A program made the translations under genes and the position numbers. Below the pieces are notes generated by a model. The model did no database searches. It was given only the letters and a program-made list of their open reading frames with translations, and had not been told where the DNA came from. Of a stretch of DNA of 29,610 bases, positions 28,602-28,661 are shown in pieces. Each line of letters begins with the position of its first letter. Positions within the stretch are counted from its first letter, which is position 1. Origin of the DNA: a virus (taxonomy: Duplodnaviria; Heunggongvirae; Uroviricota; Caudoviricetes); IMG/VR virus record IMGVR_UViG_2541047745_000005, positions 1-29,610 of that record; one strand, 5' to 3'.

Positions 28602-28661
28602 TTTTTCTGAATCAGGTGATATTTCGCCTCTTCTCCTGTTTTTACAACAGGAGAAGCACTC

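Follow-up and report, generated by a model that had tools for sequence, protein, structure and literature searches.

Directly upstream of the DNA invertase gene of a tail-fibre switch, a perfect inverted repeat takes in the ribosome-binding site of the invertase itself. What does this repeat do, and does it act as DNA or as RNA? The locus lies in a 29,610-nucleotide stretch of phage DNA (IMG/VR record IMGVR_UViG_2541047745_000005; the whole stretch is called the window below), a myovirus-type prophage with lambdoid early genes whose closest relative is Escherichia phage SKA5. The invertase gene (28662–29225, + strand) encodes a serine DNA invertase of the PinL type with 187 amino acids and the N-terminus MIYGY (Pfam Resolvase, 3.4e-36; HTH_7, 1.8e-11), which is 99.5% identical to the invertase of phage SKA5.

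The right crossover site of the switch, TTCTCCCAAACC-AA-CCTTTCAAATAT (28577–28602, + strand), forms an inverted repeat with 26786–26805 and gave the window's top score, 17.6 bits, against a matrix of 36 crossover half-sites from this invertase family, in which the information lies mostly in the inner AAA. The left crossover site (26779–26804, + strand), with which it pairs, lies within the tail-fibre gene at 26502–27248 and scored 12.1 bits for its + half and 17.6 bits for its − half. The segment between them holds two modules for tail-fibre C-termini and two assembly genes, in opposite orientation. The IMG/VR prophage L007, 96–99% identical to the window, carries the whole inter-site segment (window 26791–28576) inverted, with the right site at the inversion boundary, and the switch is therefore live in nature. 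The outer fixed half of the right site (28591–28602) starts with CCTTT and not with the GGTTT expected from the dyad, an asymmetry common to relatives; the left site reads AAACC-TT-GGTTT, unlike the CCTTT half of the right site. Within the invertase gene, 28680–28751 (+ strand) aligns without gaps to positions +19 to +90 of the P1 cin coding sequence, annotated as the enhancer in the P1 record, and is by this homology a putative recombinational enhancer. Downstream, the convergent invertase and dinI genes are separated by a G+C-rich hairpin (29257–29296, about −23 kcal/mol on either strand), probably a terminator that works in both directions; an Rfam match to CssrB below the threshold (E 0.044) falls at the same place.

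From the right crossover site to the invertase ATG the leader measures 59 bp. It contains the perfect inverted repeat CTTCTCCTGTT-TTTAC-AACAGGAGAAG at 28630–28656, whose arms are complementary at 11 of 11 positions (repeat finder: 11 nt, 100%, 5 nt between the arms). Read as RNA on the + strand, the 5' arm (28630–28640) is CUUCUCCUGUU, an anti-Shine-Dalgarno and perfect complement of 28646–28656; the loop UUUAC occupies 28641–28645, and the 3' arm (28646–28656), AACAGGAGAAG, pairs with the 5' arm and contains the Shine-Dalgarno (SD) sequence AGGAGA at 28649–28654. Five bases, CACTC, separate the end of the 3' arm from the ATG at 28662. An earlier note on this DNA had described the palindrome, placed the invertase SD inside its 3' arm ahead of the ATG at 28662, and located it between the right recombination site and the invertase gene; its sequence and coordinates proved exact, the AGGAGA lies where it was said to lie, and the recombination site, paired with its left partner, is real. 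The leader also contains a small hairpin that adjoins the palindrome, AGGUGA-uauu-UCGCCU (28614–28629, + strand), here called helix 1, with 6 bp and a predicted energy of −7.4 kcal/mol (z −5.1); in relatives, where C-G has become U·G and G-C has become G·U, the pairing is retained.

No other perfect repeat with 11-bp arms and a loop of 3–10 nt exists in the whole window. By chance a mean of 0.053 such repeats per window would be expected, and at least one occurred in 4.7% of 300 dinucleotide shuffles; the palindrome is not a chance repeat. Other perfect hairpin-type repeats in the prophage have 10-bp arms (at 12979) and 9-bp arms (at 7889 and 3026), and no further copy of either arm, which might have served as a partner in trans, occurs within the window. 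Crossover site and hairpin both fall within a 61-codon open reading frame (28480–28665), whose TGA shares bases with the invertase ATG (ATGA). We rejected translational coupling to this frame: in most relatives it closes within 5–21 codons and has no start codon, and it is thus not a conserved coupling ORF.

The palindrome belongs to one kind of invertase. Among 83 viral and phage loci chosen by invertase homology only (79–99% amino acid identity), all 83 carry it directly 5' of the invertase gene, with a constant distance to the ATG. The arm pattern had 11 matches in a scan of 185,579 species genomes. Six are enterobacterial (Pseudocitrobacter, Shimwellia, Trabulsiella, two Kluyvera contigs and Apirhabdus), and in all six the palindrome stands immediately 5' of MIYGYARVSTNHQ...; the other five are unrelated, as chance would give. 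The leader region is matched in 196 of 5426 complete E. coli genomes, and in at least 94 of these the match spans 80% or more of the query. The palindrome is identical in phi80 and mEp237 despite their diverged invertase coding sequences (about 80–82% identical to that of the window at the DNA level), and the phi80 record (GenBank JX871397) lists the element, identical in sequence and position, with 11-bp arms and with pinL 6 nt after the repeat, as 'IR3', naming it as a repeat only and giving it no function. The palindrome is thus linked exclusively to the MIYGY-type (phi80 PinL-like) invertase clade. A search of metagenomes for diverged variants with the N-terminal pattern matched mostly unrelated soil recombinases and met the palindrome only at one locus (L273). 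Many of these soil recombinases (loci L265–L344, N-terminus MIYGYARVST) carry a repeated motif, about TGATGCAGA..TCTGATGCAGAAT, just before the ATG and have no obvious Shine-Dalgarno; the motifs are probably res-type binding sites through which the gene is autoregulated at the DNA level.

We measured conservation as the mean pairwise difference among the 15 distinct leader variants found in about 130 loci. The two arms are almost fixed (0.035 for the 5' arm, 0.023 for the 3' arm), and the loop between them is free to vary (0.17; TTTAC, TTCAT, TTCAC and TTTAT all occur). The spacer to the ATG (0.30), the upstream leader (0.38) and the loop of helix 1 (0.39) differ more, and the invertase codons differ by 0.11 at positions 1 and 2 and by 0.46 at position 3, so that the 5' arm, with neither a coding nor an SD role, is more conserved than coding positions. 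In the palindrome alignment 99.4% of cells are paired and nine of the eleven pairs are invariant; the outermost pair switches from C-G to U-A on both sides, a double change that probably goes back to a single event, and one sequence has a single mismatch. This pattern clearly points to selection on the palindrome. Because covariation is minimal, the palindrome alone cannot separate selection on RNA from selection on DNA: the conservation of the arms would fit a sequence-specific DNA or RNA ligand equally well. Helix 1 and the mEpX1-type stem described below make a better case for pairing kept in evolution, with their G·U pairs and, in the latter, one compensatory change.

Folding and comparison with other invertases speak to that choice. 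All folding and opening energies given here are predictions. The palindrome hairpin folds at −14.9 kcal/mol (z −6.5) and at −22.8 kcal/mol together with helix 1, and the leader from 28596 to 28700 folds with z −4.9 and with the SD fully paired. Opening the stretch from the SD to the AUG would cost 18.7 kcal/mol, which ranks first among the 39 ORF starts of the window (next 14.6, median 9.4). The cost is 17–19 kcal/mol when the RNA 5' end lies at 28630 or anywhere upstream; it would drop to 5.7–8.5 kcal/mol with a start at 28636 or beyond, and is 5.7 kcal/mol for an RNA that begins after 28641. The SD:anti-SD duplex is worth only −7.4 kcal/mol, against the energy of the full stem given above, and by these predictions the stem is stable enough to rival 30S binding. 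When the upstream leader was shuffled the SD became less occluded, with z of 2.7–4.6 in four members of the palindrome clade. At the empirical slope of the RBS calculator, about 0.45 per kcal/mol, the difference of about 13 kcal/mol would by a rough reckoning cut translation a few hundred-fold. Folding of the invertase 5' UTR thus bears out the stable, SD-locking hairpin foreseen in the earlier note and makes it the most occluded ribosome site of the window.

The predicted hairpin matches no known RNA class: covariance models of Rfam 15 gave no match over 28596–28665 at E values up to 10. RNA thermometers such as ROSE and fourU also hold the SD in a leader hairpin, one that is mismatched and melts between 30 and 42 °C. 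The SD pairing is shared, but the stem studied here is perfect and is predicted not to melt, at −13.5 kcal/mol at 42 °C and with the full stem persisting at 70 °C, and we therefore rejected a thermometer.

Sister clades of invertases mask their SD with other sequences. The mEpX1-type invertases (N-terminus MQIGY, 65–74% identical) have no palindrome; in their leaders UUCACCUGA pairs with their own SD, UUGGGUGAA (GGGUGAA), across a loop of about 15 nt. Across 16 distinct sequences 96% of this stem is paired; two G·U pairs are invariant, one compensatory change replaces C-G by U-A, and three single changes break pairs. In the P2-like Pin clade AUCAUCUCC pairs with GGGGGAUGAU, one G·U pair included, and in a further small invertase group AAUCAC pairs with GUGAUU. 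G·U pairs would be mismatches in duplex DNA, and together with the compensatory change they point to RNA rather than DNA as the level at which the sister elements are kept. The loop lengths differ by clade (5, about 13 and about 15 nt), and the same masking achieved with unlike sequences and loop lengths fits an RNA function and not a common protein operator. In the mEpX1-type loci (L185–L264) an invariant GCCGATAAC lies about 30–60 nt upstream of the ATG; the segment before it differs in sequence by locus and is usually able to form a small hairpin, at a position analogous to that of helix 1.

Against shuffled leaders, the SD occlusion that is strong in the palindrome clade is moderate in the mEpX1-type and P2-like Pin clades (p 0.005–0.13), and the same test gave no significant occlusion for gin of Mu and D108, cin of P1, SJ46, 503046, KP12 and the MIIGY clade. 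We therefore discarded SD masking as a universal rule of invertases, since several leaders, such as those of D108 gin and P1 cin, are not significantly occluded; on these predictions it is recurrent among invertase leaders but not universal.

We consider it probable that the palindrome is a cis-acting mRNA hairpin that sequesters the SD and limits invertase synthesis, and that inversion frequency is low as a result. The palindrome would act in the invertase mRNA and not in the DNA, its 5' arm serving as the anti-Shine-Dalgarno that pairs over 11 bp with the arm bearing the strong SD AGGAGA, 5 nt upstream of the AUG. With the SD locked in an 11-bp stem, the 30S subunit would bind only in the rare unfolded state; invertase synthesis would be held low and constant whatever the level of transcription, and with the invertase scarce, tail-fibre inversion would be infrequent. 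We infer that the 5' arm is transcribed, that translation is reduced and that inversion frequency is affected. Both arms lie downstream of every plausible promoter, so the brake should also act on read-through from the tail-fibre operon, and as no + strand terminator was found between the late tail-fibre genes and the invertase gene, it would also prevent a burst of invertase during late transcription. A native start inside the hairpin would let the native mRNA escape the brake. Inversion is still seen in nature, in L007, and invertase expression would accordingly be low but not zero. There is an outside chance that a trans-acting RNA or protein opens the hairpin at a set moment, which would yield a timed pulse of invertase.

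Might the leader control the transcript instead of its translation? Helix 1 followed by the U-rich left arm could terminate or attenuate tail-fibre read-through, or a hairpin at the 5' end could protect the mRNA from decay; we judge either to be unlikely. In two of the three main leader variants, B and C, a simple scan for terminators does accept helix 1 followed by TTTCTCCTGT (the T-rich left arm), and no other + strand terminator was found between the tail-fibre genes and the invertase. The window variant fails that scan, which returned no terminator-like site on either strand in 28300–29400, and helix 1, with its 6 bp and −7.4 kcal/mol, is a small hairpin for such a task. The palindrome itself was rejected as an intrinsic terminator, as no T run (U-tract in the RNA) follows the stem on either strand (CACTCATG on the + strand, AGGCGAAA on the − strand). 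The position of a possible start site can also be read in favour of transcript control: a −10-like GATATT at 28618–28623, found by inspection and below the scan threshold, would start the RNA near 28630, the first base of the hairpin. This hexamer is, however, not conserved among variants. Promoter scans and inspection found no conserved sigma-70 promoter for the invertase across the leader variants, and the candidates, none of them conserved, are TTCAAA-18-GATATT and a −10 beside the crossover site that reads TATAAC in variant B and AATATT in the window.

The order of terminator hairpin, start site and SD hairpin is shared with IS200 (PMC4513863), which again favours a role for helix 1 in the transcript. 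Such a role leaves unexplained why the 3' arm is the SD itself, and it could coexist with the translational brake instead of replacing it. A two-tier, IS200-like arrangement, with helix 1 as a terminator and the palindrome as the SD hairpin, is tentatively conceivable.

That the palindrome is a DNA operator, where transcription into the invertase gene is blocked by a bound dimer of the invertase, host LexA, the LexA-like phage protein or some other factor, has a slim chance of being correct. Like many operators, the palindrome is a perfect dyad in which the arms are invariant and the centre varies, and each arm shares its outer 7 nt, CTTCTCC, with the outer end of the crossover half-site CTTCTCCCAAACC. 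The span from TTCTC to GAGAA is 25 bp, near the 26 bp of a crossover site. Resolvases also bind to accessory subsites of res that differ in spacing, and from these they regulate their own genes; in Tn3 and gamma-delta such serine recombinases control their own transcription by binding their own DNA sites at res. The likeness extends to the enzyme family and to the placing of a control element between recombination site and recombinase gene, but here the arms are unlike invertase binding half-sites at the informative positions: they score −2.0 bits (top 5.6% of window positions), compared with 17.6 and 12.1 bits for the real crossover sites. With the inner AAA missing from the arms, a pseudo-site at which the invertase would regulate its own gene was rejected. 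The symmetry differs as well, as the dyad axis of the palindrome passes through a single central base pair and not between two, as in the crossover site with its two 12-bp halves and 2-bp core.

LexA fares no better as the binding protein. The palindrome contains CTGT (28636–39) and ACAG (28647–50), as does an SOS box, but with 7 nt between them where the box has 8; a search for CTGT-N8-ACAG allowing one mismatch gave nothing at 28630–28656, and the earlier statement that this is not a canonical SOS box stands. The phi80 record annotates its LexA sites elsewhere than at the palindrome. The window encodes, between Dam methylase and RusA, a 108-residue protein (2121–2447) that is little more than a LexA DNA-binding domain (PF01726, 2.6e-19). 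The phage records that encode this protein number 63 and are of the SfV, SfII and Stx2c types; SfV, SfII, cdtI and Stx2c phages share it at 95–100% identity. Neither phi80 nor mEp237, in which the palindrome is identical, is among the 60 of these 63 records that were listed, and we rejected the palindrome as the operator of this protein. The sister-clade equivalents, imperfect, G·U-containing and with long asymmetric loops, also argue against an operator, as does the position of the palindrome over the ribosome site and not over any recognisable promoter. Of the earlier proposal that the repeat is an RNA hairpin or a DNA operator, the RNA half is thus upheld by folding and comparison; the operator half finds no support, given the score of the arms on the crossover matrix and the failure of the LexA-like gene and the palindrome to occur together in phi80 and mEp237. 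The earlier suggestion that the element may set inversion frequency is a reasonable one.

It is very doubtful that the palindrome has no function and is a by-product, for instance a duplicated half-site beside a strong SD that was carried along with a recently spread invertase module. The small number of distinct leader variants (15 among about 130 loci), their falling into a few types that recombination could spread, and the minimal covariation would suit such an origin. The arms, though, differ by 0.02–0.035 per site where the flanking leader and third codon positions differ by 0.30–0.46, the 5' arm is as conserved as the SD arm although it has no coding or SD role, and the change in the outer pair is compensated.

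Finally, it is highly improbable that the palindrome works within the recombination complex at the DNA level, serving there as a hinge, a cruciform or a site for an accessory protein, and so tunes inversion structurally and not through the amount of enzyme. In the Hin system a short loop between site and enhancer needs HU-assisted bending (PMC3798978), and the palindrome lies near the middle of the equivalent loop: from its centre (28643) it is about 53 bp to the crossover core (28589/90) and about 37 bp to the enhancer homologue. Each DNA strand of the palindrome folds at about −10 kcal/mol, and the distance from crossover site to ATG is nearly constant among variants. That a hinge or small cruciform in this loop of roughly 90 bp between crossover site and Fis enhancer aids or limits invertasome assembly is scarcely credible, as sister clades have the same layout of site and enhancer and no DNA palindrome, arms of 11 bp around a 5-nt spacer are at the bottom of the range in which cruciforms extrude, the palindrome persists in phi80 although the invertible segment there is degenerate, and the SD would coincide exactly with the palindrome only by chance.

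The translational brake that we favour has close parallels among mobile elements. In the transposase gene of IS200 (tnpA) a near-consensus SD lies in a leader stem-loop that blocks 30S binding, and disruption of the stem-loop raises expression; a terminator hairpin precedes the stem-loop and shields it from impinging transcription (PMC4513863). Shared with the leader described here are the DNA-rearranging enzyme kept rare, the SD in a cis stem-loop and the small hairpin just upstream (helix 1). The IS200 stem-loop differs in being long (nt 69–138) and imperfect and in working with an antisense sRNA and Hfq, where the present hairpin is short and perfect, with 11 bp, and belongs to a serine invertase. 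The only hint of a counterpart to the antisense sRNA is a promoter-like site on the minus strand, TTGATA-16-AATCAT (9/12; 28689–28662). It is present in all three main leader variants, and an RNA from it would begin near 28655 and run antisense to the invertase leader, reminiscent of art200 of IS200; the site is made of constrained coding bases, and its conservation therefore proves nothing.

In IS10 and IS50, fold-back inhibition reportedly silences read-through transcripts of the recombinase gene. There too an upstream segment is complementary to the ribosome-binding region, but the native start lies inside the fold-back and the native mRNA escapes, while in the invertase leader the plausible starts lie at or upstream of the 5' arm and their transcripts would be braked too. 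This kind of mechanism is well known, but for DNA-invertase genes it appears not to have been reported: in the literature searched we found no description of leader-hairpin control of an invertase.

A phage population benefits when a small minority of its members carry the alternative tail fibre, which is why DNA invertases must be active only rarely. Textbook accounts of invertase control centre on Fis, the enhancer and DNA topology and say little on the amount of enzyme. If the proposed brake is real, a 5' arm carrying point mutations should give more frequent switching, an idea that would not surprise a specialist. Translation initiation would then partly set the inversion frequency in widespread prophages of E. 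coli and other enterobacteria, among them phi80, known as a contaminant of laboratories, by the same logic as in the IS200 and IS10 transposases, and unrelated DNA-rearranging enzymes would have converged on one solution.
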